Source of the DNA: Parcubacteria group bacterium
Lineage (GTDB): Bacteria > Patescibacteriota > Patescibacteriia > UBA9934 > GWF2-40-263
Direction: 5' to 3'
Assembly (NCBI GenBank): GCA_013204395.1
Contig: JABMNZ010000025.1
Span: forward strand, 9,007-73,006
DNA: 64,000 nucleotides
A model generated the notes under the pieces. That model saw only the letters and a list, made by a program, of their open reading frames with translations, was not told the origin of the DNA and made no database searches. Shown here piece by piece: positions 17,343-62,140 of this stretch. Each line of letters starts with the position of its first letter. Positions within the stretch are counted from its first letter, which is position 1. The position numbers and the translations under genes are program-made.

Positions 17343-19145
17343 TTGAACTTCTGGAAGCGATATTGGGCTCTCACGAGTCCGTTCAAGCGTGACATTGGTT
17401 GGTCCATCGGTTGGATCGCTGTGGCAACGTTGATGAGCCTTGCGGCTCCCTACGTCAACAAGTTGGTCTTTGACTTGGTCAACATCTGGTGCATGCCTCA
17501 GACGGGATCCCATGTCGGGGTCATCGAAACTCTGAGCGGGTGGATGCCCAGCGCGAACACCATGTGGTGGCTCGCCGGCACAATCATCCTGATCAAGGTT
17601 GTTGTCGAAGGTCTTTCAAGCACGGTGGGAATGCTCAACCAGCGCAGCTGGCTCAAGCTCATCCTGCTCATGAACGAGCGCATGCCCGTTTTGACCATGA
17701 GTCACTTGCTCAAGCTTTCCATGGGTCACCACATCCGTGAGAGTACGAGCAAGCAGATCACCAAGCTAGAGCGCGGTATCAACGCCGCGAGCCAGCTCAC
17801 GGATCGTCTCTTCGGAAGACTCCTGCCCGAACTCCTCGTCATTCCAGTCTTTTCAGTGGTCCTCTTGGTCCTTGATTGGCGTGTTGGGGTGCTAAGCCTA
17901 GTGCTGGGGGTGGTGAGTGGAATTTGGTCGGTGTACGATTTCCGGTCACTAACCCCACATCGCAAGAGGATGGAGACGCTCTACCAACAATCGAGCACCA
18001 TCGGCTACGAAGCCATCAGCAACATCGCGACCGTTCAAGCATTCGGTTGCGAGCAGCACGAACGTGGAAGGATCAAGGGCATCCTCGCGAATATTCGTGC
18101 GGTCGAATGGGCTCAACTGGCACGTGCCATGTTCGGTGGGTACCTACGAGACGGGATGTCCAACATCTCCGGTGCTGCCGTCATCTTGATTGGTCTCTGG
18201 GGACTTCAGTCCAATGCCATGTCATTGGGAACGATGGTGATGCTACTTCAACTCAACGGTCGGTTTATCCGTTCGTGTCGCACTGTGACGCGGGAATGGA
18301 TGGAGATGGGGCGGAATCAGGAGTCGCTCTCACACCTCATGGACCTGCTGGACAAGCAGCCTGACGTTGTATCGCTTCCAACAGCGGTTGACGTAGGTTC
18401 GTCGGTTGGAGATATCGAGTTTGAACAGGTGGTCTTCTCCTACGACGGCAAAGGTCCTGCAGTACAAGACGTCAGTTTCCTGGCCAAGGCTGGGGAGATG
18501 GTGGCGATTGTCGGTCCGTCAGGATCTGGTAAGTCCACTCTGATCTCGCTTCTGCTGCGCGCCTACGACGTGGAATCGGGTGCAATCAGGATCGGGCGAC
18601 AGGATCTCCGTGTACTGAGCCTGGACAGCTGGCGCTCCAAGGTGGGCATTGTTCCACAGAGCGTGGAGCTGTTCTCCATCTCTATTGCTGCCAACATTGC
18701 CTACGGGCGACAAGGCGCAACGGATGAGGAGATCATGGCGGCAGCCAAGCTTGCTGGAGCTCATGAGTTCATCTTGGCCAAGCCAGACGGCTACGACACC
18801 ATCGTTGGTGAAAGGGGCCTGGATCTTTCCGGTGGCGAGCGCCAACGGATCGGGATCGCACGCGCGATCCTCCGGGATCCACAGGTTCTGATCTTCGACG
18901 AGGCAACTAGCAGCTTGGACGTCATTTCCGAGGCTCACATCCAGGAAGCACTGGAAACGCTCCGCAAGGACCGAACGACCATCGTGGTCGCTCACCGGTT
19001 CTCAACGATCAAGAAGGCTGACCGCATCGTGGTCATGGACGGCGGCCGAATCGTTGCCCAAGGAACGCGCGAGGAACTGCTCGAAGGCAGCCCGCTCTTC
19101 ACCGAGTTGGCACGCCTGCAAAGCGAACTCGCAATCCGCGACTGA
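17343..19145 (+). CDS. ABC transporter, fused permease/ATP-binding exporter (MsbA/ABCB-type)
   Basis: 600 aa with six TM helices, then Walker A GPSGSGKST, signature LSGGERQR and Walker B LIFDEATS. TTG start with a perfect SD. GC content is visibly higher than the flanking DNA. Confidence 0.8.
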   Translation: MNFWKRYWALTSPFKRDIGWSIGWIAVATLMSLAAPYVNKLVFDLVNIWCMPQTGSHVGVIETLSGWMPSANTMWWLAGTIILIKVVVEGLSSTVGMLNQRSWLKLILLMNERMPVLTMSHLLKLSMGHHIRESTSKQITKLERGINAASQLTDRLFGRLLPELLVIPVFSVVLLVLDWRVGVLSLVLGVVSGIWSVYDFRSLTPHRKRMETLYQQSSTIGYEAISNIATVQAFGCEQHERGRIKGILANIRAVEWAQLARAMFGGYLRDGMSNISGAAVILIGLWGLQSNAMSLGTMVMLLQLNGRFIRSCRTVTREWMEMGRNQESLSHLMDLLDKQPDVVSLPTAVDVGSSVGDIEFEQVVFSYDGKGPAVQDVSFLAKAGEMVAIVGPSGSGKSTLISLLLRAYDVESGAIRIGRQDLRVLSLDSWRSKVGIVPQSVELFSISIAANIAYGRQGATDEEIMAAAKLAGAHEFILAKPDGYDTIVGERGLDLSGGERQRIGIARAILRDPQVLIFDEATSSLDVISEAHIQEALETLRKDRTTIVVAHRFSTIKKADRIVVMDGGRIVAQGTREELLEGSPLFTELARLQSELAIRD

Positions 19146-26626: not shown

Positions 26627-27118
26627 ATGTCTGACTGCCTATTTTGCAAAATTATCGCCGGGGAGATTCCTTCGGTAAACGTATATGAGGACGAGTATGT
26701 CCTGGCGTTTCTTGATATCAATCCAGTAAAAGCTGGCCACACACTTGTGGTTCCCAAGAACCATGCTGATGATGTGTCACAGTCGTCTAACGAGGATCTT
26801 GCACAGGTCATGGGGGTAGTGCTAAAGATTGCACCAAAGATTCAGGAAACTGTTGGAGGTGATGGTTTTAATCTCATGAGTAATGTTGGAGAGGCTGCAG
26901 GGCAATCAGTTTTTCACACGCACTTTCATATCATTCCTCGATTCAATGGCGATGGATTACCAATGTGGGAGCATGAGGGTGCAACAGACGAGGGTCGTGA
27001 GGCTCTTGGTGAAAAGATTCGTAATGCCTTAATTCATCAGTCTGATACTTTACCCCCTGAGCCTGTCGAAGGGGCATCATATGAAAAAATGGAAGAGAAT
27101 AAGTACAGAAGTAATTAA
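26627..27118 (+). CDS. HIT-family (histidine triad) nucleotide hydrolase/transferase
   Basis: CLFCKIIAGEIPS ... VFHTHFHIIPRF (HxHxHxx). Confidence 0.85.
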   Translation: MSDCLFCKIIAGEIPSVNVYEDEYVLAFLDINPVKAGHTLVVPKNHADDVSQSSNEDLAQVMGVVLKIAPKIQETVGGDGFNLMSNVGEAAGQSVFHTHFHIIPRFNGDGLPMWEHEGATDEGREALGEKIRNALIHQSDTLPPEPVEGASYEKMEENKYRSN

Positions 27119-27635
27119 TAAAAATCCGTGGACCGAGTTCCTTCACGATCGTTTTGAGACACCTGATGGAAGGCAAGGAGATTATTATTACATGAAGACT
27201 CCGGTTGGATCTGTTCTTATCGTTCCACTTCTAGATGATGGTCGACTTGTTCTGCACCGAGAGTATCGATACTTGTTCGATCGGATAAGTCTTGAGTTTC
27301 CTGCCGGGGGAATCAAAATTGAACAATCTCCTGAACAAGCGGCAAGAGCAGAGTTACAAGAAGAGACGGGGTACACCGTTAATCATCTTGAGGAGATTCA
27401 AAAAATAGCTCCCGGTAATGGATTATTCTTAGAGTATACTCATGTATTTCTTGCCAAGGAACTTACCGCTGGTGAAACGAGCCCGGATGAATTTGAGGAA
27501 TTTGAACCAGTCTTAATGACGGTGGGAGAGGTTGATGCCGCGATTCAAACTGGTGAGATTTGGGATGGGTTTAGCTTGTCGGCTTGGTGTCTTGTCAGAC
27601 AAAGGGTTTTAGATATTCTTGAAAAGAATTTATGA
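27081..27635 (+). CDS. NUDIX hydrolase (ADP-ribose pyrophosphatase-like)
   Basis: Nudix box GGIKIEQSPEQAARAELQEETGY; GAAGGGG SD before ATG 27081. Confidence 0.8.
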   Translation: MKKWKRISTEVINKNPWTEFLHDRFETPDGRQGDYYYMKTPVGSVLIVPLLDDGRLVLHREYRYLFDRISLEFPAGGIKIEQSPEQAARAELQEETGYTVNHLEEIQKIAPGNGLFLEYTHVFLAKELTAGETSPDEFEEFEPVLMTVGEVDAAIQTGEIWDGFSLSAWCLVRQRVLDILEKNL

Positions 27636-28633
27636 AGATACTTTTGACAGGTGGCGCGGGGTTTATGGGATCAAACATGATCCATTATTTATTGCGCGAA
27701 TATAAAGATGTGGAGATCGTAAACTTTGATGATCTTACTTACGCAGGGAACCTGACAAACCTTTCAGATATACAGGATGACCCTCGTTACAGATTTGTTA
27801 AAGGCAACGTTGCTGATTCTAAAGCTGTCGACGCAGTGGTTAAGGGGGTGGATCTAGTGATCAACTATGCGGCCGAGACTCACGTTGATCGAAGCATCTT
27901 GGAGCCAAAGGCATTCATCGATACAAATATTTACGGTGCTTACAATTTGCTTGAGGCCGTGCGTAAGCACAAGATTCCTAAAATGGTGCAGATTTCAACT
28001 GACGAGGTTTATGGCGCTGTGATGGAAGGAGAGAGCGACGAGGAGAGCAAGTTTGAACCACGCTCGCCGTATAGCGCATCAAAGGCTGCGGCTGATCACT
28101 TGTGCAGCTCTTATGCGGTCACATACGATATGCCGGTGATTATTACGCACTCGTGCAATTTCTATGGTCCGTATCAGTTTCCAGAAAAGTTAATTCCTTT
28201 GTTCACCATGAATCTACTCGAGGGCAAGACCGTGCCTGTCTATGGCGATGGTCAGCAAATAAGAGAGTGGATTTTTACAGAGGACCATTGCCGTGCCATT
28301 GATGCGATTGCCCAAAAGGGTCGCTTGGGAGAGACCTACAATATCGGAACTGGTTTCCGAGTGCCAAACATGGATGTCACTAGAAAGTTGATGGAACTGA
28401 CTGGTCGAGGAGAAGATGCGATTGAGTATGTAAAAGACAGGCCTGGCCATGACCGTCGCTATGCAATCAACTCAAACAAACTCCGCACAGAAGTAGGCTG
28501 GGAGCCAAAGATTAGTTTCGAAGACGGACTTGCACAGACGGTCGAGTGGTATAGGTCCAACCACCAGTGGGTCGACGCCTGCCGCACCGGTTCTTATAAA
28601 GATTATTACAAACAGCAATATGTCGACCGTTGA
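27632..28633 (+). CDS. rmlB: dTDP-glucose 4,6-dehydratase
   Basis: MKILLTGGAGFMGSN..., YSASKAAADHL (YxxxK), 333 aa; typical RfbB/RmlB. Confidence 0.85.
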   Translation: MKILLTGGAGFMGSNMIHYLLREYKDVEIVNFDDLTYAGNLTNLSDIQDDPRYRFVKGNVADSKAVDAVVKGVDLVINYAAETHVDRSILEPKAFIDTNIYGAYNLLEAVRKHKIPKMVQISTDEVYGAVMEGESDEESKFEPRSPYSASKAAADHLCSSYAVTYDMPVIITHSCNFYGPYQFPEKLIPLFTMNLLEGKTVPVYGDGQQIREWIFTEDHCRAIDAIAQKGRLGETYNIGTGFRVPNMDVTRKLMELTGRGEDAIEYVKDRPGHDRRYAINSNKLRTEVGWEPKISFEDGLAQTVEWYRSNHQWVDACRTGSYKDYYKQQYVDR

Positions 28634-29102
28634 AGATGTGGCAAATAAGAAGGAGATTCAATACCAGGTGAATACTACTGCTGGATTGATAATCGGGTTC
28701 GTTGCTGTCTTGGCTGTTTTCCTTATGATTTTTGGCATGGCTTTTGTAAGTGGAGATTTCAGCAGAGAAAACATTGTTCTGTATCTCGTATTGGGTTTGT
28801 TTGGGTTAGTGGTTTTATCCAGCATCCGGAATATTCTTCATGGGCTTCGAATGGTGAAAATTATCGGCAATGAGGTTGTTCTTGAGTATAAAGAAAAGAC
28901 AGAGCATGTTCCTGTGTCAGAGATTTCTAGTGTGAATACAATGCGGTTTAAGGATAAGAATAAAAACAATTTCAAAGGGGTTGTGTACTTTAAGGTGTAT
29001 CAAGAGACGAAGAAAGGATTAACGTTTAATACGCATAAACCTGGAGGATTAGAAGCATTCGAATGGTTTGAGCGTCTTCAGAAATCACAAAAAGAATTAT
29101 GA
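28620..29102 (+). CDS. hypothetical membrane protein
   Basis: ATG 28620 (MSTVEDVANKK...) overlaps the rmlB stop. Two TM helices. Confidence 0.5.
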   Translation: MSTVEDVANKKEIQYQVNTTAGLIIGFVAVLAVFLMIFGMAFVSGDFSRENIVLYLVLGLFGLVVLSSIRNILHGLRMVKIIGNEVVLEYKEKTEHVPVSEISSVNTMRFKDKNKNNFKGVVYFKVYQETKKGLTFNTHKPGGLEAFEWFERLQKSQKEL

Positions 29103-29950
29103 AAATACTTATTATCGGAGCGGGGTACATGGGGCAGCGTTGTAAGGAAGAGTGGGGGGATGAGGCTGAACTTTCTGAAAAGATTATTGAGACCAAACGG
29201 GACGCACTCGACGAGATTGAACGGGTGAAACCTGATGTTGTGTTTAATGCCGCAGGCGTTAAGGGGGTACCGAATGTTGATTGGTGTGAAGATAATCAAC
29301 TGAAGACCATCCTTGGTAACACATTGGAACCGATTGTTTTGGCGCAGGCGTGTCAGGAAAAAGGTTTGTACCTGCTTCACATGGGGTCTGGTTGTATCTT
29401 CTATGGCGACGCTCCTCATGAGGACAAGGCTTGGCGTGAAGATGACTTTGGAAACCCACGACCTGTTTACTCACGAACCAAGTGGGCAGCAGACCTGGTC
29501 TTGTCGACATTGCCAAACGTAGGGATCGCTCGTATCCGAATGCCGATCGACTGGAAGCCATCACCCGGCAATTTGATAAACAAGTTGGCTGGATACACAA
29601 AGGTGATCGATGTAGAAAACTCTGTGACGATTGTTGAGGACATGATTGACGTGTTCCATCAGCTTTTGGAAAAGAAAGCTGAAGGGATTTTTCACGTGAC
29701 AAACCCTGGGACCATGCGCCATCGTGAGTTCATCGGGCTCTATGAGGAGCTCGTCGATCCAACTCATACAAACGAATGGATCACCAATGACGAGCTTGTC
29801 GGACAAGGGCTCGCCACCAAGGGGCGATCAAATAATTTCTTAGCCAACGAGAATCTTGGCAAAGTAGGAATCACAATGCGGCCGATATCCGAGGCACTAC
29901 GTGAAACGTTCGTGAAGTACGCAAAGGCAAAAAAAGTAGATGATGAATAG
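29099..29950 (+). CDS. rmlD: dTDP-4-dehydrorhamnose reductase-like NAD(P)-dependent sugar reductase
   Basis: MKILIIGAGYMG, VKPDVVFNAAGVKGV, YSRTKWAADLVL; collinear with the RmlD topology. ATGA-coupled. Confidence 0.6.
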   Translation: MKILIIGAGYMGQRCKEEWGDEAELSEKIIETKRDALDEIERVKPDVVFNAAGVKGVPNVDWCEDNQLKTILGNTLEPIVLAQACQEKGLYLLHMGSGCIFYGDAPHEDKAWREDDFGNPRPVYSRTKWAADLVLSTLPNVGIARIRMPIDWKPSPGNLINKLAGYTKVIDVENSVTIVEDMIDVFHQLLEKKAEGIFHVTNPGTMRHREFIGLYEELVDPTHTNEWITNDELVGQGLATKGRSNNFLANENLGKVGITMRPISEALRETFVKYAKAKKVDDE

Positions 29951-30046
29951 GATTAATTCCTGTTACGAAAAGGATTTTGAGAGCGTTATCTAGATTCATT
30001 CATTGACAAACCATAAAAAATCTGGTTTCATAAACATACAAGTTTA

Positions 30047-30079
30047 AACCCCCTGTCTATAACGACTGGGGGTTTTGTG
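30047..30079 (+). terminator. terminator after rmlD-like gene
   Basis: AACCCCC-(14 nt)-GGGGGTT followed by TTGTGTTT. Confidence 0.5.
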
Positions 30080-30101
30080 TTTCAAATATCTCAAACGAAA
30101 C

Positions 30102-30119
30102 ATACGACGGCCGTCGCAT
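30102..30119. repeat. 16-bp-class perfect palindrome ACGACGGCCGTCG(T/C) element, copy 1 of 3
   Basis: ATACGACGGCCGTCGCAT followed by AAAGCGTTTTTTT. Copies 2 (30673-30690) and 3 (54025-54044) share a ~30-bp consensus ACGACGGCCGTCGYATRAAnnGTTTkTT. Confidence 0.8.
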
Positions 30120-30140
30120 AAAGCGTTTTTTTAGAAACAT

Positions 30141-30692
30141 ATGTCAAAGAAAAGAATTCCAAAAACAAGAGCGTATTTGCAAAAACTTACAAGGCGAATA
30201 GAACGACTCGAATCAGATATACCTATTAGTTTTGGGGCACGTGGTACAGGGGTGAGAGCAGGATCGTTTGAGATCGGTGCAAGAATCGAGAATCGAATTC
30301 AAGCAAATAAACTTAGAGTCGAAAGAGATTTGGTCAGAAATGGACTCCTAGAGATTCAGCAGAGAGGGGCTGAGACTACTTTTAGCTTGACTGTAGCGGG
30401 ATTATTACAGGTATTGAAAGACAGGATTGTTCTGGAGAGGAGAGAGATGCTTGAAGATGAGCGTTGTTTTGTTATCTTTGATGTTCCAGAAGATATTCGA
30501 AAAACCAGAAATACATTACGTCACTTTTTAAAACAAGCCGGATTTAAGCAAGTTCAGCAAAGTGTTTGGGTGACAGATAAGGATGTTGCTGATGACATGA
30601 GACAACTTGTTGAAGAACTTAAGATCTCAGATTGGGTTCGAGTGATAGTGGGGCGTTTGATCGAGACGGAATATACGACGGCCGTCGTATGA
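30141..30692 (+). CDS. winged-HTH + Cas2-fold-like domain protein (PaaX-like architecture); putative regulator or nuclease
   Basis: C-terminal CFVIFDVPEDIRKTRNTLRHFLKQAGFKQVQQSVWV...DDMRQLVEELKISDWVRVIV matches the Cas2 pattern (beta1-D, basic helix, G..Q.SVF). N-terminal LVRNGLLEIQQRGAETTFSLT looks like a recognition helix plus wing. The ORF ends inside palindrome copy 2. Confidence 0.5.
   Translation: MSKKRIPKTRAYLQKLTRRIERLESDIPISFGARGTGVRAGSFEIGARIENRIQANKLRVERDLVRNGLLEIQQRGAETTFSLTVAGLLQVLKDRIVLERREMLEDERCFVIFDVPEDIRKTRNTLRHFLKQAGFKQVQQSVWVTDKDVADDMRQLVEELKISDWVRVIVGRLIETEYTTAVV
30673..30690. repeat. palindrome TACGACGGCCGTCGTA, copy 2
   Basis: Perfect 16-bp palindrome overlapping the last codons and stop of 30141..30692. 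Confidence 0.8.
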
Positions 30693-30763
30693 ATCGTTTG
30701 TTGGAAATTTGTGATTTTATTTGGACATGTTGGCAATTAGAGATTTCTGTAGTTGAGTTAATG

Positions 30764-30842
30764 ATTGACAAAGAGGTGTCGCGCTGCTAAGTTCTTTCTC
30801 TCTGTCATCCGGCAGGGGTTTGCTAAGGAGTCTCATAATAAG
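30764..30842 (+). promoter_or_regulatory. conserved cassette promoter/leader A
   Basis: GATTGACAA...GCTGCTAAGTT...CTCTGTCATCCGGCAGGGGTTTGC, then AAGGAG and ATG 30843. Near-identical to leader B, with an 18-nt exact block. Confidence 0.55.
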
Positions 30843-31577
30843 ATGAGTAGAGACAAACGTGACGGTGGGATGGTGCTGCTCGAGGAGCCGCATTTTGATC
30901 AAATGAATCCATGGGGACAGCCGGTCGTTGGCTGGCTCCCAACTTCTCAAGGAGTGGGAGGGATTCAGAACCATCGCGGCTGGGCCATGCTCAGGACCGT
31001 GCTGTGGAAGCTGGACGAGGGTGGCAACCCCATTCCTCTGTACGACCAGCCCGTGATCGTGGAGAAGCCGGGTGCCATCGTGATCGCCACGGTGGGAGAT
31101 CGGATCGGTTTGATCCAGAGCTACCGCATGGTGGCCGAGCGACTCATGCCGGAATCGGGGAACGACTACATCCGTCGTCTTCAGAGCGAAGAACGATGGG
31201 GTGAACTGGTCGAGAGTACCGGAAAGTGGATGTGGGAGGCCCCTCGCGGTCTCATCGATGGCGACCCAAAGGAGATGGACGCAGAAGCGTTCGTGATCAA
31301 GTCGGCGAAGCTGGAGGCGGCTGAAGAGGCTGGTTTCCGTCTGAAGGGAGCTCGGCTTGTCGGTCGAGTGAACGTGAACCCCACCTTCTACCTGCACTCG
31401 CAGTGGGTGGTTCACGCCGAGATCGAATCCGTTGGTGATGCCAAGCCGGAGAACCTCGAGATCATCGGGGACAAGCGCCTGTTCACCATGGATGAACTTC
31501 GTGCGGCGAGCATCGACGGCACATTCGACGATGGACTTACTCTGGCGGGCATGGCCCTGTGCGGAATGAGTCTCTGA
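30843..31577 (+). CDS. hypothetical protein (cassette gene A; weak Nudix-like signature)
   Basis: GC-rich 244-aa ORF. ...GDPKEMDAEAFVIKSAKLEAAEEAGF loosely resembles a Nudix box. The overlapping minus ORF 30717..31415 looks like antisense noise. Confidence 0.55.
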   Translation: MSRDKRDGGMVLLEEPHFDQMNPWGQPVVGWLPTSQGVGGIQNHRGWAMLRTVLWKLDEGGNPIPLYDQPVIVEKPGAIVIATVGDRIGLIQSYRMVAERLMPESGNDYIRRLQSEERWGELVESTGKWMWEAPRGLIDGDPKEMDAEAFVIKSAKLEAAEEAGFRLKGARLVGRVNVNPTFYLHSQWVVHAEIESVGDAKPENLEIIGDKRLFTMDELRAASIDGTFDDGLTLAGMALCGMSL

Positions 31578-31588
31578 AGCGAGTCTGT

Positions 31589-31672
31589 GTTCCAGAATGA
31601 GTCCATACGAGGACTAATTCTGGAGTAAAGATTTTCTACGCGCGGTCTGAAATACGGCTGCTTTTTTGTTTG
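31589..31672 (+). repeat. cassette 3' module A: 14-bp-stem hairpin plus conserved 43-nt element
   Basis: TTCCAGAATGAGTCC...GGACTAATTCTGGAG hairpin, then GATTTTCTACGCGCGGTCTGAAATACGGCTGCTTTTTTGTTTG (31630-31672). The same 43-mer, with 1 mismatch, occurs at 32753-32795. Confidence 0.7.
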
Positions 31673-31701
31673 AGTCGAATTGTCGATCTTATACCTTTAC
31701 G

Positions 31702-31806
31702 ATTGACAATAAGTGAAATGGCTGCTAATTTGAGTCCTCTCTGTCATCCGGCAGGGTTTTGCAGATGCAGCTCTGGCCCACCAAGGTCAGTCTGTGCGAG
31801 GTTCAC
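31702..31806 (+). promoter_or_regulatory. conserved cassette promoter/leader B
   Basis: GATTGACAA...GCTGCTAATTT...CTCTGTCATCCGGCAGGGTTTTGC; GAGG SD before ATG 31807. Confidence 0.55.
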
Positions 31807-32703
31807 ATGGGAGACGAAATCACAGAGGTTCCACCCGAGATTCAGAGAGTCGCTTGTTTGGCGATGACTCCTGAGGGGCAGGTGGTGTTCGACCACACAG
31901 GTGACAGGGCGGAGCTCAGGCTTGTGCAAGGTCAGCTGTGGGCAATGGAAACGGCAGAAGAGTGTGCTCAGCGACGGCTGACCACAAGTCTCTTCGTGCG
32001 CTCAGGCTCCGAGATGAGTCTTCATAACCTGGGGCTGATCAGCCTCGGATCCGAGAGTCAGAGGACCCAGATGGTCCTGTTCGTTGCAACGGGAGTCGAT
32101 CTGAGAAAGGAAGGTATGCGGTCCATGGACGGACTGCAGGAAAACGACGAGCCTGTCCTACTGTCGCTCTACGAGATCTACAAGCAGATCAGGGAAGGGG
32201 CTATCAGCGACACGCTGGTCCAGACTGCCGTGATGCGGATGCTGGTTACCGGACTCATCAATCCACCAGGGGTATTGCCACTGGCTCGATTCACGCCGGT
32301 GCACTCGATCACTCACCACTGGTTCTCTTCATTCATGGGCCATGGGATGACCTTGACCGTCATGTCTGATGGGCGCATCAGGCTTTACGACGGGTCAGAT
32401 GACTTCTGCTCGATGCCTCCGTCGGTCTTCGGAGTTCTCGCCACGGACCTCAAGCCGATCATTCGTCGGTTGAAGCGTCAGTCGCGTCGCAAGAGTGGTG
32501 TCTGGAGCTTCCGTCTCTACTTCTACCACGGCTACACCTACGACTACGCCGCCAAGAGGGACCGTGGAGGCAATGGTCCGCACCTGACGTTGTACTACGA
32601 GGTCAAGGAGCTCGAAAATGCACGTGCGCTCGCCATCAAGTTCCAGGAGATCCTGGATGCTCAAGCGAAGCTCCCTCAACTGAACCGACTCTGGTTCTTC
32701 TGA
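31807..32703 (+). CDS. hypothetical protein (cassette gene B)
   Basis: GC-rich 298-aa ORF with no recognisable motif. The track ORF starts at TTG 31759 inside the leader. Confidence 0.55.
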   Translation: MGDEITEVPPEIQRVACLAMTPEGQVVFDHTGDRAELRLVQGQLWAMETAEECAQRRLTTSLFVRSGSEMSLHNLGLISLGSESQRTQMVLFVATGVDLRKEGMRSMDGLQENDEPVLLSLYEIYKQIREGAISDTLVQTAVMRMLVTGLINPPGVLPLARFTPVHSITHHWFSSFMGHGMTLTVMSDGRIRLYDGSDDFCSMPPSVFGVLATDLKPIIRRLKRQSRRKSGVWSFRLYFYHGYTYDYAAKRDRGGNGPHLTLYYEVKELENARALAIKFQEILDAQAKLPQLNRLWFF

Positions 32704-32711
32704 GAATCTCT

Positions 32712-32795
32712 AATCCCGAACCTGCGCTTAGATGTGCAGGTTCGGGATTGTGGATTTTCTACGCGCGGTCTGAAATACGGCCGCTTTTTTGTTTG
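32712..32795 (+). repeat. cassette 3' module B: perfect 14-bp-stem hairpin plus conserved 43-nt element
   Basis: AATCCCGAACCTGC-GCTTAGAT-GCAGGTTCGGGATT, then GATTTTCTACGCGCGGTCTGAAATACGGCCGCTTTTTTGTTTG. Confidence 0.7.
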
Positions 32796-32841
32796 GTTGG
32801 AAGTTTGACGACATTTTATACACATCGTAGAGTATCGCCGT

Positions 32842-33924
32842 ATGAAAGCACTCATTGCAGCAGGTGGGCACGCAACACGTTTGCGGCCTATTACATGGAC
32901 GAGAAATAAGCATTTGATACCAATGGCTAACAAGCCAATGCTTTGGTATGTTCTTAAAAAGGTTACGGATGCTGGAATCAAAGACATCATCGTTAATGTG
33001 AATCCTGGCGAGGTAAAGTACATGTCTGATGCCCTGGGTGATGGCAGTGAGTTTGGTGCAACCATCACGTACTTGGAGCAGCGCGGGGGTGCTAAGGGGT
33101 TGGCTCATGTTGTGGCCAATGCTGAGGAACATCTCAAGGGTGAGCGATTCCTATTTTTCTTGGGCGACAATATTATCTTGGGATCCATCAATAAGTTTGT
33201 TGATCGATTTCAAAATGAGGAGCTCGACTGCATGATTGCTTTGTCGCATGTGAAGGACCCACATCGTTTTGGTGTTGCAGAGTTTGGTGTTGATGGAGAA
33301 CTTACACGGACGGTTGAAAAACCAAAGGATCCACCATCACCATTTGCCGTCACAGGAATTTATTTATTCGACGAAAAGTATTTTGAAGCTTTCAAGAACA
33401 TTGATCCATCTCCACGAGGTGAATATGAAATTACGGATATCATTACCTGGTATATCCGTAATGGAAAAGTTGGGCACGAGGAGATTACTGGATGGTGGAA
33501 AGATACTGGAACACCAGACGCACTTATTGAGGGCAACGCTCTCATTATGGATGACATGGAGCGCGGTGAATTCTGCGTGGACTGTAAGCCTCATGTGGAC
33601 GCACAGATTCAAGGACTTGTATCCATAGGTGAGGGGTCGGTTATTTCAAGTGACTGCTTGATCCGTGGACCTGTAACCATTGGAAAGAACTGTGTGATCG
33701 AATCAAGTTTTATCGGTCCGTACACGGCCATAGGGGATGGTGTGACGGTTCGCAATACAGAGGTTGAGCACTCCATCGTATTTGAGGGAGCAACGATCGA
33801 TACCACAAGACGTATTGTAAATAGTCTTATTGGCACAAACGCAACGCTGGTAGATCACAAACGGTCGCATCCAAAAACCAGCCATAGGCTGGTGATCGGT
33901 GATAATAGTTTTGTAGAGCTGTAA
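32842..33924 (+). CDS. rmlA: glucose-1-phosphate thymidylyltransferase (long form with C-terminal left-handed beta-helix)
   Basis: MKALIAAGGHATRLRPITWTRNKHLIPMANKPM... nucleotidyltransferase motif. 360 aa. Upstream TTGACG-17-TAGAGT promoter-like sequence. Confidence 0.8.
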   Translation: MKALIAAGGHATRLRPITWTRNKHLIPMANKPMLWYVLKKVTDAGIKDIIVNVNPGEVKYMSDALGDGSEFGATITYLEQRGGAKGLAHVVANAEEHLKGERFLFFLGDNIILGSINKFVDRFQNEELDCMIALSHVKDPHRFGVAEFGVDGELTRTVEKPKDPPSPFAVTGIYLFDEKYFEAFKNIDPSPRGEYEITDIITWYIRNGKVGHEEITGWWKDTGTPDALIEGNALIMDDMERGEFCVDCKPHVDAQIQGLVSIGEGSVISSDCLIRGPVTIGKNCVIESSFIGPYTAIGDGVTVRNTEVEHSIVFEGATIDTTRRIVNSLIGTNATLVDHKRSHPKTSHRLVIGDNSFVEL

Positions 33925-35340: not shown

Positions 35341-36645
35341 ATGCTTCCAAGAAAACAACAAAAAAATAAGCAACCATTTCCAAGATCATTTACAGTTTTA
35401 CTTCTCCTCCTCGTAACAACGATTGCCTTCAGCATCGGTTTTTTTGTTGGGGAGACAAGTAGAGCACGTGAGCTGGTTCCAGTTGGAGAGGGGGTTGTTA
35501 CTGAGAAAGGGGATGTGCCTCCATATTTAGCGGATGATATTTCGTTTGAACAGTTTTGGAGTGTGTGGAACTTTGTCAAAGAAGAGTTTTACAAACAGCC
35601 GGTAAGTGATAAGGATTTGTTTTATGGATCTCTAAAGGGGTTGCTTTCTGGATTAGATGATCCGTACTCTGTCTATTTTGATCCAGAAGAAAGGAATAAG
35701 TTTAATGCAGATCTTGAGGGGAGTTTTGAGGGAATCGGGGCTGAGATTGGAATTAAAGACGATCAGTTGCAGATTATCGCACCTCTTTCGGGTATGCCAG
35801 CTGATTTAGCTGGTTTGTTGCCGGGAGATTGGATTGTAAAGATTGATGGGACAGAAACAAGAAACATGAGTGTTGAGGCCGCCGTCTCTCTTATTCGTGG
35901 TGAGGGAGGAACAGAGGTGGTTCTCTCTATTTATCATGAGGGATTAGAGGCAATTAAAGATGTGACCATTGTTCGAGGCAAGATTGTGATCGATTCCGTA
36001 AAGTGGGAGACAGATGAGAATAAGATCATGGAGATCTCTATCTCTACATTTAATCACGACACAAGTGGGTTGATGAATGAGGCTATTCAGGAGGCGCTTT
36101 CTACAAACGTAGAAGGCATTGTTCTCAATCTTCGCTCAAATCCAGGTGGGTTGTTAACCACAGCGATTGATATAGCCAGTGCCTGGGTTGGATATGACAC
36201 AGTGGTAATAGAGAGAACTAGAAGTCAGGCAAATACCTTTAATGGTGTAACCGCTCCTCGACTTCAGGATATCCCAACGGTTGTCCTGGTAAATGGTGGA
36301 AGTGCCTCTGCTTCTGAGATTGTTGCTGGAGCACTCCAGGACTATGGTTATGCGACTGTTGTTGGGACTCAGACATTTGGAAAAGGATCCGTACAGGATT
36401 ATCAGGAGCTCTCTGATGGTTCTGCGGTAAAGATCACCACAGCGGAGTGGTATACACCAAATGGGAGGACAATAAATAAGACTGGGCTTTCGCCGGATAT
36501 AGAAATCTTGTTTACACTTGAAGAGTATGAAGCGGGGATCGATCCTCAGTTGATTGTCGCCAAAGAGATCATTTTGGGAACGTATGAACCAACCGAAGTC
36601 ACAATCGAAGAAACCGACCCCACCGAGAACATCGAAACCGAATAA
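35341..36645 (+). CDS. S41 C-terminal processing (tail-specific) peptidase with PDZ domain
   Basis: PDZ GIGAEIGIKDDQLQIIAPLSGMPADLAGLLPGDWIVKIDG; catalytic region LNLRSNPGGLL ... Signal anchor. Confidence 0.8.
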   Translation: MLPRKQQKNKQPFPRSFTVLLLLLVTTIAFSIGFFVGETSRARELVPVGEGVVTEKGDVPPYLADDISFEQFWSVWNFVKEEFYKQPVSDKDLFYGSLKGLLSGLDDPYSVYFDPEERNKFNADLEGSFEGIGAEIGIKDDQLQIIAPLSGMPADLAGLLPGDWIVKIDGTETRNMSVEAAVSLIRGEGGTEVVLSIYHEGLEAIKDVTIVRGKIVIDSVKWETDENKIMEISISTFNHDTSGLMNEAIQEALSTNVEGIVLNLRSNPGGLLTTAIDIASAWVGYDTVVIERTRSQANTFNGVTAPRLQDIPTVVLVNGGSASASEIVAGALQDYGYATVVGTQTFGKGSVQDYQELSDGSAVKITTAEWYTPNGRTINKTGLSPDIEILFTLEEYEAGIDPQLIVAKEIILGTYEPTEVTIEETDPTENIETE

Positions 36646-36664
36646 AAAAGGAAAGCGAGAAAAG

Positions 36665-37105
36665 GTGCAGAGAGAGCTCTCCGCGGGTGGTGTGGTGTTT
36701 AGACGCTCCGGTAATGGAGTCTCGTTTGCGATGATGAAAGATTCCTATGGCAAATGGACATTTCCCAAGGGGCATATTGAAACAGGTGAGGATATTGAAG
36801 AGACTGCCGCACGTGAAACACTTGAGGAGCTTGGTCTTGAACAGGTTAGATTACTTGAATATTTGGGTTCAATTGATATTTGGTTTCGTGATCGATTTGA
36901 AAAGAAGGGACAGTTAATCAACAAGGACATTCATTACTATTTGTTCGAGGCCCCATCAGGAAGCCAGCTGGCACCAAATCCAGATGAGCATGCTTATGAT
37001 GCTTCCTGGGTACCAATGAGTCGTGTTGAAAAAATGTCTAGTTATCAGGACATGATTCCAATTGTAAAGAAGGCACTCGCCCATGTAAAAAGGCTTGGGC
37101 GTTGA
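36665..37105 (+). CDS. NUDIX hydrolase
   Basis: Nudix box GHIETGEDIEETAARETLEELGL. Probable GTG start at 36665 after AAAGGA. Confidence 0.7.
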   Translation: MQRELSAGGVVFRRSGNGVSFAMMKDSYGKWTFPKGHIETGEDIEETAARETLEELGLEQVRLLEYLGSIDIWFRDRFEKKGQLINKDIHYYLFEAPSGSQLAPNPDEHAYDASWVPMSRVEKMSSYQDMIPIVKKALAHVKRLGR

Positions 37106-40378: not shown

Positions 40379-40867
40379 GTGTCTCGAAGAAGTCGAATGA
40401 AAGACAGGCCCAAGAATCCCCGTCAGCGCATGCTTGAGGAGCTGCAGGAATTGCTGGCGTTGGCTCGTGAAGCCATCTCCACGGAGACCGATCCGCTGCT
40501 GATCAACGCTGATCAGCTCGCACCGGTTCTGGAGTTGGCGGAGCGGACCGCGAAGATCGCGCGGACCTACACGATTCAGCGTGAGCTGATGATGGAGATC
40601 TACGGGCTGTTGATCAGTGGGAAGTTCAACTTCCGTCTGCTCGACGAGATCTTCCAGGGACGTCGTGGGAAGAGGCCTACGGCCGTCTTCGACCAGAGCA
40701 TCAAGATCATCTCGATCCAGGTCGCTGGTCGCATCCCCGTGAACGAGGCACATGTTCGTGACCCGCTCACCGGTGAGAGCATGCCGGCCACGGAAGTCCG
40801 TGTGGGTCTGATCGAGTTCCTCACGTCCATTGGGCGTCACGTCGAAGCCGGAGCCTTCGCGCTTTAG
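40379..40867 (+). CDS. hypothetical protein (GC-rich islet)
   Basis: AGGAGA SD then GTG start. 162 aa. The overlapping minus ORF 40334..40903 looks like antisense noise. TTGACA-17-TATCTT promoter-like sequence at about 40303. Confidence 0.5.
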   Translation: MSRRSRMKDRPKNPRQRMLEELQELLALAREAISTETDPLLINADQLAPVLELAERTAKIARTYTIQRELMMEIYGLLISGKFNFRLLDEIFQGRRGKRPTAVFDQSIKIISIQVAGRIPVNEAHVRDPLTGESMPATEVRVGLIEFLTSIGRHVEAGAFAL

Positions 40868-40890
40868 GCCACACGACCACAACACGCAAT

Positions 40891-40921
40891 CCCGGTATGG
40901 CACCTGTCATCCGGGTTTTTT
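40891..40921 (+). terminator. terminator after 40379..40867
   Basis: CCCGG-(15 nt)-CCGGG followed by TTTTTTG. It contains CTGTCATCCGG, the same 11-mer as the cassette leaders. Confidence 0.5.
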
Positions 40922-54024: not shown

Positions 54025-54044
54025 ATACCGACGGCCGTCGTATA
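54025..54044. repeat. palindrome element ATACCGACGGCCGTCGTATA, copy 3 (1-nt insertion relative to TACGACGGCCGTCGTA)
   Basis: It shares the extended consensus with 30102 and 30673 and is preceded by a partial direct repeat CCGACGGAAATACCGACGG. Confidence 0.7.
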
Positions 54045-54131: not shown

Positions 54132-54554
54132 TCAGGGGGTGTCGGACTTGAGCGGTGGGAGGTTCAGCGGTTCGCCGATCCAAACGATCTGGTCGCGAAC
54201 ACGTTGCCTCACGTGGTCGTTGAACGCGATTTCCTCGCTGTAGATGAGGAGGCCTCCGGTGTGTTGAATCCGGAGTCCGCGCTCTGTCAGGATGCACACG
54301 GCGGGGATCCCACCGGAGACACATGGGCGGACGTTCTCTCTCCAGGAGATGACGGCCGGAGTGACGGCCCTCTTGCAGTTTCCCGCGCCCCAGATGTCGG
54401 CGTAGGCTTCACTGCAGATCTGCTCGACGATCATGTCGATCTCAGCTTGCTCTTCCTTGTCAGGGTTGAAGATCCATGACACTCCCCCAACAAGCAGAAA
54501 AAGCATCCAGCCGATGAGTCCGGCAACCCAGAAGTATCTCAATGGATTCATTGT
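54132..54554 (-). CDS. hypothetical membrane-anchored Cys-containing protein (GC-rich islet)
   Basis: ATG 54552-54554 (MNPLRYFWVAGLIGWMLFLLVGG...) with GGGAGA 10 nt upstream. 140 aa. The track ORF extends further to 54692. Confidence 0.5.
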   Translation of the reverse strand, partial: TMNPLRYFWVAGLIGWMLFLLVGGVSWIFNPDKEEQAEIDMIVEQICSEAYADIWGAGNCKRAVTPAVISWRENVRPCVSGGIPAVCILTERGLRIQHTGGLLIYSEEIAFNDHVRQRVRDQIVWIGEPLNLPPLKSDTP

Positions 54555-54742
54555 GTTGGTCTCCCAGTGGTTACGCCACGAACCGTTCGTTGTGGGACTA
54601 CTTGAGTAGTAGCTTTCTAGGCTTACCCAGCCGTAAGGGGGTCTTGGCTTGCAAGAACGAGTTAATCTAGCCATATTTTCGTTCTTTGTCAACCCAAAGA
54701 GATCATAGGGTTGGTTATACTTTCTGATATACTACTTTCCAT

Positions 54743-55750
54743 ATGGAAAAGAAATACGTTGCTAATAAGGCGTTTATTGTGAATCAAGCTGGGAAAGTTC
54801 TTATGCTTCGCGATGCTGGGAAAGGCGATCATGTAAATGCGAAAGGGAAGCTTGGGTTTCCTGGTGGGCGCATGGATCGAGGTGAGACACCTCAAGAGGG
54901 TCTATTGCGCGAATTAAAAGAAGAGATTGGGGTTGAGGAGGGGGCACTCGATATCGGCCCACCGATTCATGTGAGTATCTGGGGTATAGGGGGAGATGTC
55001 CTTGAAAAGCCAATCATTGGAATTCACTATTTGTGTCGACCTCGTGGAGAGCTCACGATCACACTCTCTGACGAGCATGACGAGATTGTCTGGATTGATC
55101 CAAGGCAGTCTCTTCCAGAGGAACAGACAGATCACGACCTTAGAGCTCTTCTAGAGGCGTATAGGGCGCATGAGGGTATTGTTGTGGCGGCAGATGTGGC
55201 GATTAAGGGTCGACAGGGATACGGACTTATTCAATTATTCACAGGCAATGGTAAAGGTAAGACAACGGCTGGTATAGGTGAGGCGATTCGGGCTGTGGGT
55301 GCGGGTAAAAAAGTAGGAATTGTCTTTTTTGATAAGGGTGGTGACGATCATTATTTTGAAAGATTGGTGCTTGAAAAGCTTGATGGTGTTGATTTTGTGG
55401 CTACAGGTAGGGACAGAATTCATCCTTCCACAGGAGCGTTTGACTTTTCAATTCAGGACCTAGATTTGGTAGAGGCGCAGCGTGGCTTGGGGGAAGTCCA
55501 CAGGATGTTCACCGAAGGATACGATCTTGTCATCATGGACGAGATTAACTCAACAACAGACCTTGGTATGATCTCTGTGGAATCTGTTTTGGCAGCACTC
55601 GACAAGAAACCTGAGGGTACTGAGCTCATCATGACTGGCCGAAATGCTCCTCAGGAATTTCTTGATCGTGCGCATCTTGTCAGCGAGATGAAACTTAGGA
55701 AACACTATTTTTATTCAGGCGTGAAAGCACGTGAAGGCCTTGACTACTAA
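54743..55750 (+). CDS. NUDIX hydrolase - corrinoid (cob(I)alamin) adenosyltransferase CobA/CobO/BtuR-type fusion protein
   Basis: N-terminal Nudix box GGRMDRGETPQEGLLRELKEEIGV. C-terminal P-loop LIQLFTGNGKGKTTAGIG and MDEINSTTDLGMI, typical of the CobA family. Confidence 0.7.
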   Translation: MEKKYVANKAFIVNQAGKVLMLRDAGKGDHVNAKGKLGFPGGRMDRGETPQEGLLRELKEEIGVEEGALDIGPPIHVSIWGIGGDVLEKPIIGIHYLCRPRGELTITLSDEHDEIVWIDPRQSLPEEQTDHDLRALLEAYRAHEGIVVAADVAIKGRQGYGLIQLFTGNGKGKTTAGIGEAIRAVGAGKKVGIVFFDKGGDDHYFERLVLEKLDGVDFVATGRDRIHPSTGAFDFSIQDLDLVEAQRGLGEVHRMFTEGYDLVIMDEINSTTDLGMISVESVLAALDKKPEGTELIMTGRNAPQEFLDRAHLVSEMKLRKHYFYSGVKAREGLDY

Positions 55751-56581: not shown

Positions 56582-56723
56582 GATTCTAGGTATGAATACA
56601 CAGATCCACACAACAACTTCACGCCGCCGCGGTCGCCACTAGGACGATCCGCGTTTTGTTATCATGCAACCGAGAGTCGTCCATAGGGCGACTCTTTTTG
56701 TTTTATCTAAAAAGGAGACGTCC

Positions 56724-57233
56724 ATGCCGACGATTCACACACATCCCTCATCTGTCCCGGATCACGTCTGGGACATCATCTCTGTGGCCACCACAGCAGA
56801 GCCAAAGATCGATTCCACCCGCAACACCCCTGAGAACCTCAAGGGTCTCTACCAGCGCCACCTTGCTGTGGTGCTCATGGCAGAAGGGGAGCCGGTCGGA
56901 TTCATCGCGGCCTGGCCGGTGGAAGATGGTTTCGCGGAGATCGGCTCCATCTGGATTCGCAGTGATCATCGTGGCAGGGGACTCAGTCACAAGCTATACG
57001 ATGCCGTGGCAGGTCTCAGAGGAATCAAAGAACTGGTGGCCTTCGGGGTCACAACCAACCCTATTTCCGTTCACGTCGGAAAGCGCGTAGGGCTGACGAT
57101 CGTCGATGACTGGAGCCGCCCGGTTCCCATGCATCTGACCTGCGGGCCTTGCGAGCTCATCGCACTCGCTGATCAGGCTACGTGTCCAAAACGAGGGACA
57201 TCATGTTGGCTTAGGGTCATGAAGCCTAAGTAA
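56724..57233 (+). CDS. GNAT family N-acetyltransferase
   Basis: AGGAGA SD then ATG 56724. IWIRSDHRGRGLSHKLYDAV (R/QxxGxG/A acetyl-CoA motif). GC-rich. The track ORF begins at 56664. Confidence 0.65.
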   Translation: MPTIHTHPSSVPDHVWDIISVATTAEPKIDSTRNTPENLKGLYQRHLAVVLMAEGEPVGFIAAWPVEDGFAEIGSIWIRSDHRGRGLSHKLYDAVAGLRGIKELVAFGVTTNPISVHVGKRVGLTIVDDWSRPVPMHLTCGPCELIALADQATCPKRGTSCWLRVMKPK

Positions 57234-57245
57234 CGCCCCGCACCA

Positions 57246-57280
57246 CCTGCCAGGACATACGGTCACGGCAGGTTTTTCTT
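57246..57280 (+). terminator. terminator after GNAT gene
   Basis: CCTGCC-(15 nt)-GGCAGG followed by TTTTTCTT. Confidence 0.55.
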
Positions 57281-57284
57281 ATCT

Positions 57285-57306
57285 GTCGGAAGCTAAGCTT
57301 CCGGCC
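57285..57306. repeat. palindrome element GTCGGAAGCTAAGCTTCCGGCC (copy 3 of 3)
   Basis: Identical 22-mer to 19198-19219, again directly after a terminator. Confidence 0.8.
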
Positions 57307-57395
57307 CGTGGGGGTTTTCTTAGCCTTTCTCGTTCCAGTGCAGGTTGTTTATGTAGGTATTTAAAAACCCCGATGTCGTATCGGGGGGGGGTGGA

Positions 57396-58220
57396 TCAGA
57401 GTTCCGGGTAGCGGTCCTCGATCCGGCGCACTAGTCGTTCGAACTCGGGCAGTCGGTGGTTGTCTGGTCTCCAGGCGATGGAGTCCATCAGGTTGATCTC
57501 CTCTACGATCCTTGCGCCATCTTGCGGAACGCCATCGACGAAGTCGCGACCCATGAGCCATACCGTGTCTGCGATGCGCAGAGCAGACCGGATGTCATGG
57601 GAGATCACAACGATGGTTCGGTGCTCGTCCATGTTGGTCGTTTCGACGAGAAGGTCACACACAGCCGTCTTAGCCAGGGTGTCGAGCCCGGAGAACGGTT
57701 CGTCCATCATGATCAGCTTGTCACCGTTGATGACCTGCTGAGCGATCGCCAGTCTTTGACGTTGGCCACCAGAGAGCTGAATGGGGTACTTGTCGATCTC
57801 TCGGGCGATTCCGAACCGCTCGAGGAGCTCCATGATTCGACTCTTGTAGTCGGTGGCAGAGATCTCGGGATTGTTCCGTGCCGATACCAACATGTTGCCC
57901 ATCACCGTGCGGTGAACGAGCAGCATGTAGTTCTGGTACACCACCCCCACTGATCCTGCGACCACTGGGACAAGCGGTGAGCCAGCCCTCACGATGCCCT
58001 CATTGGGCCTTTCCAGTCCGGCAAGGGCCCTGAACAACGTGGTCTTTCCACAACCCGATGGGCCGAGAATTGCCACGATCTGTCCTTGGGTCATGCCAGG
58101 TCGGATCACGTCATGAACTTGTACGGACAAACCCTTGAGGATGGTTCTGTCTCCGAAGGACTTGGTCACACCAACGGCTTCCAACAGCAGGTCGCCCCTT
58201 GAGTGTTCGTAGTCTCCCAT
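57396..58220 (-). CDS. ABC transporter ATP-binding protein (NitT/TauT nitrate/sulfonate/bicarbonate family)
   Basis: Walker A GPSGCGKTT, signature LSGGQRQR, Walker B LIMMDEPFS. GC-rich. Confidence 0.8.
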   Translation of the reverse strand: MGDYEHSRGDLLLEAVGVTKSFGDRTILKGLSVQVHDVIRPGMTQGQIVAILGPSGCGKTTLFRALAGLERPNEGIVRAGSPLVPVVAGSVGVVYQNYMLLVHRTVMGNMLVSARNNPEISATDYKSRIMELLERFGIAREIDKYPIQLSGGQRQRLAIAQQVINGDKLIMMDEPFSGLDTLAKTAVCDLLVETTNMDEHRTIVVISHDIRSALRIADTVWLMGRDFVDGVPQDGARIVEEINLMDSIAWRPDNHRLPEFERLVRRIEDRYPEL

Positions 58221-58221
58221 C

Positions 58222-59803: not shown

Positions 59804-59806
59804 GCC

Positions 59807-62125: not shown

Positions 62126-62140
62126 TGGTACTTACTCCTC

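Follow-up and report, generated by a model that had tools for sequence, protein, structure and literature searches.

Variable polysaccharide loci of bacteria, such as the O-antigen region between galF and gnd or the pneumococcal cps locus between dexB and aliA, are located between conserved genes, and their alleles are replaced by homologous recombination. The cassettes of integrons usually lack a promoter and are expressed from the Pc promoter, with the tyrosine recombinase IntI and the attI site adjoining. At the RNA level, stem-loops such as those of the ompA 5' untranslated region (UTR) and of REP-stabilised 3' ends stabilise bacterial mRNAs. The locus described here shares traits with these systems. 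It lies in a stretch of 64,000 nucleotides (hereafter the window) from contig JABMNZ010000025.1 of a Parcubacteria group bacterium, and consists of two GC-rich genes, gene 1 (30843-31577) and gene 2 (31807-32703), found between an rmlD-like gene and rmlA of the dTDP-rhamnose (rml) cluster of this member of the Patescibacteria.

As in the polysaccharide loci, a variable interval with discordant allele history and atypical base composition is flanked here by rmlB/D and rmlA. Unlike in those loci, one or two Nudix genes make up the cargo in place of glycosyltransferases, flippases or polymerases, the interval measures just 1-3 kb, and conserved 5' and 3' UTR modules are common to the units. With integron cassettes the locus shares an open reading frame (ORF) followed by an imperfect hairpin of conserved base and variable top, and tandem units that vary in order and content; it differs from them in that no recombinase was found, the units have promoters of their own, R and L core sites are lacking, the cargos are two paralogues, a single locus is involved and a sense-strand RNA structure is favoured. 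The resemblance to mRNA-stabilising stem-loops lies in a short hairpin at the extreme 5' end of the predicted transcript and a long one between stop codon and terminator, but the 3' element, unlike REP, is confined to one locus and is not a dispersed repeat family.

A first-pass annotation, made from the letters of the window, had described the region as a cassette-like island inserted in the rml operon. We consider, with moderate confidence, that in this Parcubacteria/Uhrbacteria-like lineage the interval from the rmlD-like gene to rmlA is occupied by one or two self-contained transcription units, each with a single gene for a Nudix-family protein. It forms a small slot of variable content within a cluster for polysaccharide precursors, its UTR modules being structured and locally homogenised, and is not a new class of mobile element: what recurs in the two units is a promoter, a 5' hairpin and a structured terminator. 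Related loci are labelled L001 to L046 below, and homologous proteins P00xx.

Anatomy of the two units

Each unit would follow the same plan: a sigma-70-type promoter, a stem-loop at the 5' end of the mRNA that corresponds to an 18-nt block, a Shine-Dalgarno sequence, the ORF, a hairpin after the stop codon and a short terminator. The features of the interval, in which GC3 stands for the G+C fraction at third codon positions, are the following.

30765-30793, + strand: predicted gene 1 promoter, read from the sequence (TTGACA, 17-nt spacer, TAAGTT)
30800-30817, + strand: gene 1 5' stem-loop, 18-nt block (7-bp stem, AUCC loop), at the predicted transcription start
30843-31577, + strand: gene 1, 244 aa, predicted Nudix fold, like nucleoside diphosphate (NDP)-sugar hydrolases and ADP-ribose pyrophosphatases; GC3 0.70
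31578-31637, + strand: long imperfect hairpin 3' of gene 1, beginning right past the stop codon (-34 kcal/mol, z -3.9)
31642-31667, + strand: predicted gene 1 intrinsic terminator (GCGGTC/GGCTGC stem, 8-nt loop, T6), core of the module 31630-31672
31703-31731, + strand: predicted gene 2 promoter, read from the sequence (TTGACA, 17-nt spacer, TAATTT)
31739-31756, + strand: gene 2 copy of the 18-nt stem-loop block, an exact match to the gene 1 copy
31807-32703, + strand: gene 2, 298 aa, N-terminal ADP-ribose-pyrophosphatase-like Nudix domain and family-specific C-terminal domain of ~150 aa; GC3 0.71
32702-32759, + strand: long hairpin 3' of gene 2, beginning inside the stop codon (-52 kcal/mol, z -8.2)
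32765-32790, + strand: predicted gene 2 intrinsic terminator, core of the module 32753-32795
32805-32833, + strand: predicted rmlA promoter (TTGACG, 17-nt spacer, TAGAGT), orthologous to the sequence right after the gene 1 terminator in L016/L018

The sequence GATTGACAA, which contains the TTGACA -35 box, is present three times, at 17280, 30763 and 31701. The gene 1 promoter was missed by a consensus promoter scan, whose -10 rule demands A at position 2, T at position 6 and 9/12 matches. Between the window and L001 the -35 and -10 elements of this promoter are kept and its spacer has partly diverged; between the two units of the window the spacers differ as well, the hexamers and the transcribed block being conserved. 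This block, CTCTGTCATCCGGCAGGG, is present in two exact copies and nowhere else in the 64 kb. It begins 6-7 nt past the -10 element, where transcription is predicted to start, and folds into a hairpin with 7 bp in the stem and 4 nt in the loop; it is predicted to be the first hairpin of the mRNA. Orthologous and paralogous leaders keep the stem by compensatory change: CUGUC/GGCAG in the window and L001, CUGCC/GGCAG in L015/L016, CUGCU/AGCAG in the gene 2 units of L019/L021 and CUCGC/GCGAG in L005/L008. No match to the leader block was found in the viral contigs of IMG/VR. As a separate observation, the terminator (40885-40915) of an ORFan at 40379-40867 holds CTGTCATCCGG, an 11-mer identical to the core of the 18-nt block; ~0.2 such matches are expected by chance, and the sharing is probably coincidental.

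At the other end of the units, the 43-nt module occurs at 31630-31672 and 32753-32795 with a single C/T difference, whereas 100 shuffles gave no match and the rest of the 64 kb holds no further copy. These repeated modules lie exactly where the first-pass annotation had placed them, and long hairpins of differing sequence (31578-31637 and 32702-32759) do follow each gene, as it had described. The 43-nt module is the base of the 3' arm of the long hairpin plus a linker plus the intrinsic terminator, whose predicted 6-bp stems (31642-31661 and 32765-32784) are each followed by TTTTTT, as expected of intrinsic terminators.

Five copies of the whole 3' element were compared (gene 1 and gene 2 of the window, gene 1 of L001, gene 2 of L015 and gene 1 of L016). 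All five have a common fold, formed by a 55-60-nt hairpin at the stop codon, a TACGCGC linker, a 6-bp stem with a CUGAAAYAC loop, and a U run; the single-stranded linker and the loop are conserved in sequence in every copy. Paired positions make up 91% of the cells of the alignment, against 31-44% in slid-partner controls, and compensatory changes are seen in 11 of the 27 pairs, against 3.6+-1.5 in shuffles (0/500 reach 11). G-U pairs are frequent on the + strand, and the covariance model scores 102 bits in the sense direction and 32 in the antisense, which favours a structure of the sense-strand RNA. Searches of Rfam with gathering thresholds on the whole window, and with E-value thresholds on 29900-32900, returned nothing relevant. 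By analogy with the stabilising stem-loops mentioned above, a plausible role of the 5' stem-loop and of the hairpin after the stop codon is protection of the mRNA ends.

The annotation had also proposed a search for further copies of the modules elsewhere. The covariance model, run on the window and 40 loci, and pattern scans place the 3' element only in the window, L001-4, L015 and L016-18, always after gene 1 or gene 2, that is, at one locus of one clade. Exact and degenerate scans for the 3' module recovered L015 only from 596 Gb of genomes, and nothing from the JGI metagenomes or IMG/VR. Dispersal like that of REP or of miniature inverted-repeat transposable elements is not seen, with just two copies in 64 kb, both in one slot. 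In L016-18 the 3' element of gene 1 is followed directly by an rmlA promoter matching window positions 32805-32844; since the element also follows gene 1 in L001, it represents the native terminator region of gene 1, of which a copy is present in the gene 2 unit. The two terminator modules of the window are 97% identical to each other but only 78-89% identical to the copies of other genomes, while the hairpin parts of the two units are only 60% identical; this points to local duplication or conversion.

The near-identity of the modules is not the product of a genome-wide cassette machinery. It would have arisen by local duplication or gene conversion once the paralogous units had been juxtaposed by homologous recombination; a possible route is the integration of the gene 2 unit via a crossover inside the terminator or leader homology. 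The terminators would insulate both units from rmlD and rmlA, the latter presumably being served by its own promoter.

Two Nudix-family proteins

Gene 1 has 67 homologues, mostly in Patescibacteria. Its AlphaFold2 model, built from a 34-sequence alignment, reached a predicted local distance difference test (pLDDT) score of 94.8, and Foldseek returned more than 300 Nudix matches in the PDB at E <= 1e-3, the top ones (5c7q, 3o52 and 1g0s) at ~1e-9. The model superposes on these with template modelling (TM) scores of 0.54-0.72 at a sequence identity of 12-17%, and has the C-terminal 'DG.T..A' helix in common with them. Of the three, 5c7q is the NDP-sugar hydrolase Bd3179 from Bdellovibrio (PMC4629899). 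The entry 3o52 is the GDP-mannose hydrolase YffH/NudK and 1g0s the ADP-ribose pyrophosphatase NudF, both from E. coli. As modelled, gene 1 thus has the alpha/beta/alpha fold of the Nudix superfamily. In the gene 1 family E158, E162 and G164 are invariant or nearly so, and E161 is present in the protein of the window. The Nudix box (GX5EX7REUXEEXGU) has an insertion in its N-terminal half and Leu in place of the Arg before the first Glu, owing to which Pfam misses most members of the family: the gene 1 protein of the window gave no match to Pfam NUDIX, whereas the distant member P0067 is over the cut-off. In comparison with known Nudix hydrolases the N-terminal region is extended.

In its genomic context, gene 1 is found between rmlD and rmlA in L005, L008, L016-18 and L026, next to differently arranged rml genes in seven or more additional lineages (L013, L024, L025, L029, L033, L036, L038/39), and elsewhere in a few. 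It is an old partner of the rml pathway and not a foreign insert. From the modelled fold and the neighbourhood, the protein probably hydrolyses dTDP-sugars or related NDP-sugars. PADLOC and PHROGs gave no match for gene 1 or for gene 2 of the window, and no homologue of either is present in IMG/VR, so that a phage origin finds no support. A literature search on Nudix proteins with rml genes in Patescibacteria found nothing specific.

Regarding gene 2, a word-indexed search returned the protein itself only; its homologues P0069, P0070, P0071 and P0072 were obtained with exhaustive HMMER and profile searches, the former being required for P0069-71. P0070 and P0072 have canonical Nudix boxes and are over the Pfam NUDIX cut-off, and the family profile matches NudF (1g0s) at 1e-4. 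In PADLOC and PHROGs, P0070 gave generic Nudix matches only. The Nudix box of the gene 2 protein of the window, GQLWAMETAEECAQRRLTTSL, is degenerate (E16 to R, E19 to T, E20 to S) and has no Pfam match; its catalytic positions read R-R-L-T-T-S. Since the catalytic glutamates are lost the protein is probably inactive as an enzyme. To judge from its residues it is probably a non-catalytic binder or regulator, and fold and neighbourhood suggest dTDP-sugars or related NDP-sugars as its probable ligands. A single-sequence AlphaFold2 run gave a pLDDT of 34, and no match was found for the C-terminal domain of ~150 aa that is common to all members of the family. The kinship with NDP-sugar hydrolases and ADP-ribose pyrophosphatases extends to both families, through the superposed model of gene 1 and the NudF match of the gene 2 profile, but the gene 2 protein of the window differs from known Nudix hydrolases by the lack of catalytic Glu residues and by its extra domain.

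Aligned with hhalign, the two families match over the Nudix box and the C-terminal helix (E 1.4e-4, 52% probability). They are, as judged from these sequences, distant paralogues, and gene 2 is a clade-restricted relative of gene 1. Every gene 2 homologue whose context was examined occupies the same slot between rmlD and rmlA. The first-pass description of both products as unrelated and unassignable is superseded by structure, family-level Pfam matches and profile comparison, and two 'hypothetical' proteins gain family assignments. A Nudix family not annotated before and mostly invisible to Pfam is recurrently located beside dTDP-rhamnose genes across the Candidate Phyla Radiation, and in these reduced genomes it points to the hydrolysis or sensing of dTDP-sugars as a candidate step. 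Besides, five Nudix-family genes are encoded in the 64 kb (27081-27635, 30843-31577, 31807-32703, 36554-37105 and 54743-55750), the last of them being a fusion of Nudix with CobA/CobO (corrinoid adenosyltransferase).

A variable slot and how it may have formed

The junction between rmlD and rmlA was compared in relatives, as the annotation had proposed, and the gene content of the slot differs. Gene 1 alone is present in L005, L008 and L016-18, and gene 2 alone in L019/L020. The slot of the window holds a PaaX-like ORF followed by gene 1 and gene 2, that of L015 gene 2 and then gene 1, that of L021 an unrelated 254-aa gene and gene 2, and that of L042 gene 1 and minus-strand ORFs. In L001-L003 gene 1 is accompanied by a 554-aa HNH_repeat protein, and the short contig L004 ends within an ORF after gene 1. 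The gene 2 unit of L015 corresponds, relative to L016, to a 1033-bp insert within the spacer of the gene 1 promoter, with ATTGAC at either end. Of the supposed insertion into the operon, the varying content stands; gene 1, an old and widely conserved neighbour of rml genes, is not a foreign insert.

As an observation on the same slot, the 554-aa protein of the nearest relatives (L001 6922-8586; also in L002, partial in L003) is GC-rich, is found in the position of gene 2 and has its own promoter and a simple terminator. It contains ~8 'homing endonuclease associated' HNH_repeat units (Pfam PF18780, 2.1e-08).

The alleles of gene 1 have a history of their own. Between the window and L001, identity at third codon positions is 95.5% in gene 1 against 70-77% in rmlB, rmlD, rmlA and the S41 protease gene; along the unit, identity is 83% in the promoter, 97.7% in the 5' UTR, 98.2% in the coding sequence, 67% in the long hairpin and 86% in the terminator. 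Between L015 and L016 the corresponding values are 94.7% in gene 1 against 72% in rmlD and 67% in rmlB. On the contrary, the gene 1 proteins of the window and L016 are only ~62% identical, whereas rmlA reaches 92% and rmlD 85%. Synonymous-site divergence of gene 1 is therefore ~six-fold below that of its neighbours in two independent genome pairs and far higher in deeper pairs, and a uniformly slow synonymous rate cannot explain both. Discrete gene 1 allele classes spread across backbones can explain this pattern.

The GC richness of both genes noted in the first pass is borne out, GC3 being 0.70 and 0.71 against 0.33-0.52 in the neighbours (~0.45 in the backbone). In 11 of the 18 loci where a simple ORF caller found gene 1 and its neighbours, GC3 of gene 1 is higher than theirs by >0.1, and it is never lower by >0.01; curated calls add the window and L001 (0.70 against ~0.45), and L005, L008, L022, L037 and L044-46 were left out, as the greedy ORF caller is unreliable in GC-rich loci. 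The homologues with raised values, up to +0.42, are those of L009, L011, L013, L016, L023, L024, L029, L031, L033, L036 and L043. In L013 gene 1 has a GC3 of 0.49 against 0.18, and in L011 of 0.85-0.88 against ~0.4; as GroEL of L011 has 0.42, expression level does not explain the excess. The homologues of gene 2 are likewise GC-richer at third positions than their neighbours. The slot is, on this reading, a recombination hot spot where divergent alleles of gene 1 and gene 2, as well as other genes, are traded between backbones in the manner of variable polysaccharide loci. The hot spot is small and belongs to a sugar cluster of the cell envelope in a lineage without cultivated members, with allele swapping visible as the six-fold drop in synonymous divergence and the persistent GC excess.

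Several points weigh against reading the interval as free-standing units traded by homologous recombination. The 5' hairpins are thermodynamically unexceptional (z -0.1 to -2), so that it is conservation and covariation that argue for this element, and the minimum-free-energy fold of the gene 2 leader, which is longer, is an alternative structure in which the 18-nt hairpin is not used. Transcription starts, termination and any stabilising role are predictions. The order gene 1-gene 2 is known from a single contig, where a strain-level assembly join at the 43-62-nt repeat is possible. Finally, the two hairpins mark the exact limits of the high-identity tract shared by the window and L001 (30800-31577), which plain homologous recombination does not predict and which leaves room for a hairpin-directed mechanism. 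Related to this, gene 1 and gene 2 could be autonomous expression cassettes that move horizontally in Patescibacteria, the 5' stem-loop and the post-stop hairpin bounding the exchange tracts without a dedicated integrase. Although we hold this for unlikely, the structured modules would then be portable homology or recombination boundaries, and the GC3 excess of gene 1 would be a footprint of exchange, either through a GC-rich donor pool or through GC-biased gene conversion. The exchange tracts that end at hairpins, the GC excess of gene 1 across much of the phylum and the unmatched C-terminal domain of gene 2 are the oddities that are left.

The annotation had gone further and compared the region with integron attC arrays. 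What survives of the exchangeable cassettes is a variable slot of discrete promoter-to-terminator units; the analogy with integrons and the idea of a general cassette system do not. If the long hairpins were attC-like sites and a recombinase moved leader-to-hairpin units, this would account for hairpins with conserved base and variable top directly after each ORF, for the varying order and content of units in relatives (including gene 1-gene 2 and gene 2-gene 1), for the bounding of the window-L001 tract by the 5' hairpin and by the stop codon and 3' hairpin, and for the clean ends of the L015 insert. Nevertheless, the Pfam scan of the window ORFs of at least 120 aa that were judged to be genes (a few larger ORFs being left out) found no integrase, recombinase or transposase domain across the 64 kb. 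Gene 1 and gene 2 each have a predicted promoter and terminator of their own, at odds with promoterless cassettes. Neither the hairpin base (GAGAATCT/AGATTTTC) nor the junctions show RYYYAAC/GTTRRRY core sites, GTTTGAG and GTTGGAA not fitting GTTRRRY. In the covariance-model search every occurrence of the element lies behind one of two paralogous genes, all at a single locus; the genome, metagenome and viral-contig scans added a single related locus and nothing more; G-U pairs favour an RNA structure of the sense strand. The cargo is not arbitrary either, both genes being Nudix paralogues, which speaks against any general cassette system. Movement by a site-specific recombinase is therefore highly improbable. 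The annotation had itself named modules unique to this locus and genes fixed at the site in homologous genomes as findings that would tell against cassettes, and for the modules and gene 1 this is largely what was found.

A simple tandem duplication of the gene 1 unit, whose second ORF diverged past recognition without any exchange between genomes, would agree with two Nudix-superfamily ORFs of similar GC3 and with flanking modules that are near-identical and unique to the locus. However, the flanks are 97-100% identical, yet BLASTP detects no similarity between the coding regions (E = 16); because non-coding DNA should not outlast coding DNA, this contradicts plain duplication. Homologues of gene 2 also occupy the slot in L019/L020 and L021 without the 3' element, and in L019/L020 without gene 1, which means that gene 2 is far older than the identity of the modules. 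Together with the discordance between gene 1 alleles and backbone in two genome pairs, this makes such a duplication rather improbable, if somewhat less so than the other alternatives of this section apart from autonomous cassettes. Selection could also have kept the shared modules alike as cis-regulatory RNAs, with both units co-regulated via an RNA-binding regulator or the Nudix proteins themselves. In its favour, the promoter spacers of the two units differ and conservation sets in only at the predicted +1 of their mRNAs, gene 1 and gene 2 units from distant relatives show covariation in the 5' stem, the 3' structure covaries, and the TACGCGC linker and CUGAAAYAC loop are constant in all five copies; but no Rfam family matches, the gene 2 units of L019 and L021 are devoid of the 3' element, the energies of the 5' hairpins are unexceptional, and an identity of 97% within the genome against 78-89% between orthologues points to conversion or duplication over selection alone. 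As the full explanation this is very doubtful; as a contributing factor, selection on a regulatory RNA is possible. Least credible of all is an assembly artefact in which GC-rich fragments of another organism were joined at short repeats. The sharp GC3 step (0.70 against ~0.45), the gene 2 arrangement known from one contig only and the 43-62-nt repeats that flank gene 2 would fit with it. On the other hand, a GC-rich gene 1 with the same leader stands in the same place in four independent assemblies (L001-L004), GC-rich gene 1 or gene 2 is embedded in lower-GC backbones in many unrelated assemblies, the gene 2 homologues of L015, L019/L020 and L021 fill the same slot in independent assemblies, and the promoters and terminators at the edges of the units are AT-rich and resemble the host.

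Neighbouring features of the window

A third gene of the region, which the first pass did not name as such, precedes gene 1 and is bordered by two palindromic repeats.

30092-30120, strand not assigned: palindromic repeat copy 1, core ATACGACGGCCGTCGCAT, 22 nt upstream of the PaaX-like ORF
30141-30692, + strand: PaaX_M/Cas2-like ORF, AT-rich, 183 aa, GC3 0.33
30672-30700, strand not assigned: palindromic repeat copy 2, a perfect 18-nt palindrome that overlaps the last codons and the stop of the PaaX-like ORF

The product of this ORF matches Pfam PF20803 (1.5e-17), TIGR01573 cas2 (2.9e-07) and the Cas2 models of PADLOC, and the gene is an insertion relative to L001, L015, L016, L019 and L021. 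The palindromic element of ~30 nt, with core ATACGACGGCCGTCGTAT, is present in three copies in the 64 kb, the third of which (54026-54043) has similar flanks and adjoins a GC-rich ORF (54132-54692, minus strand); it is absent from all 46 related loci. The copy located 22 nt before the ATG of the PaaX-like ORF could, from its position, be an operator.

Related repeats had also been reported at the borders of the interval (30696-30720 and 32790-32818). The match is weak, for 24 of 2000 shuffles attain its alignment score of 23. It is not above chance and is accounted for by promoter-type similarity, and a target-site duplication was discarded on these grounds; the right-hand segment matches another promoter, at ~56550, better than it matches the left border. 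Downstream of rmlD, a third ATTGACAAA promoter-like site is found at 29993-30010 and, ~35 nt further on, a CCCCC...GGGGG hairpin with a T run (30046-30085). The segment 29998-30085 may be either the terminator of rmlD or a tiny transcription unit of ~50 nt.

Between rmlB and rmlD the window carries an AT-rich ORF of ~160 aa (28620-29102), apparently membrane-spanning as its sequence is hydrophobic. It is absent from L001, L015 and L016, and ORFs of 158-159 aa, matched by size and position alone, are found at the same place in L019 and L021; it represents another presence/absence polymorphism in the cluster.

Other patches of high GC3 (0.6-0.86, against 0.4-0.5 for the genome) are located at 17343-19145, 40379-40867, 54132-54692 (minus strand) and 56664-62854. 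One patch encodes an ABC transporter and has a GGATTGACAAA promoter; two are single ORFans, both equipped with a promoter and a terminator; another is a 6-kb block that codes for a GNAT protein, an ABC ATPase and a permease-like protein as well as unknowns. Single-gene units of foreign composition seem to be scattered through the genome.

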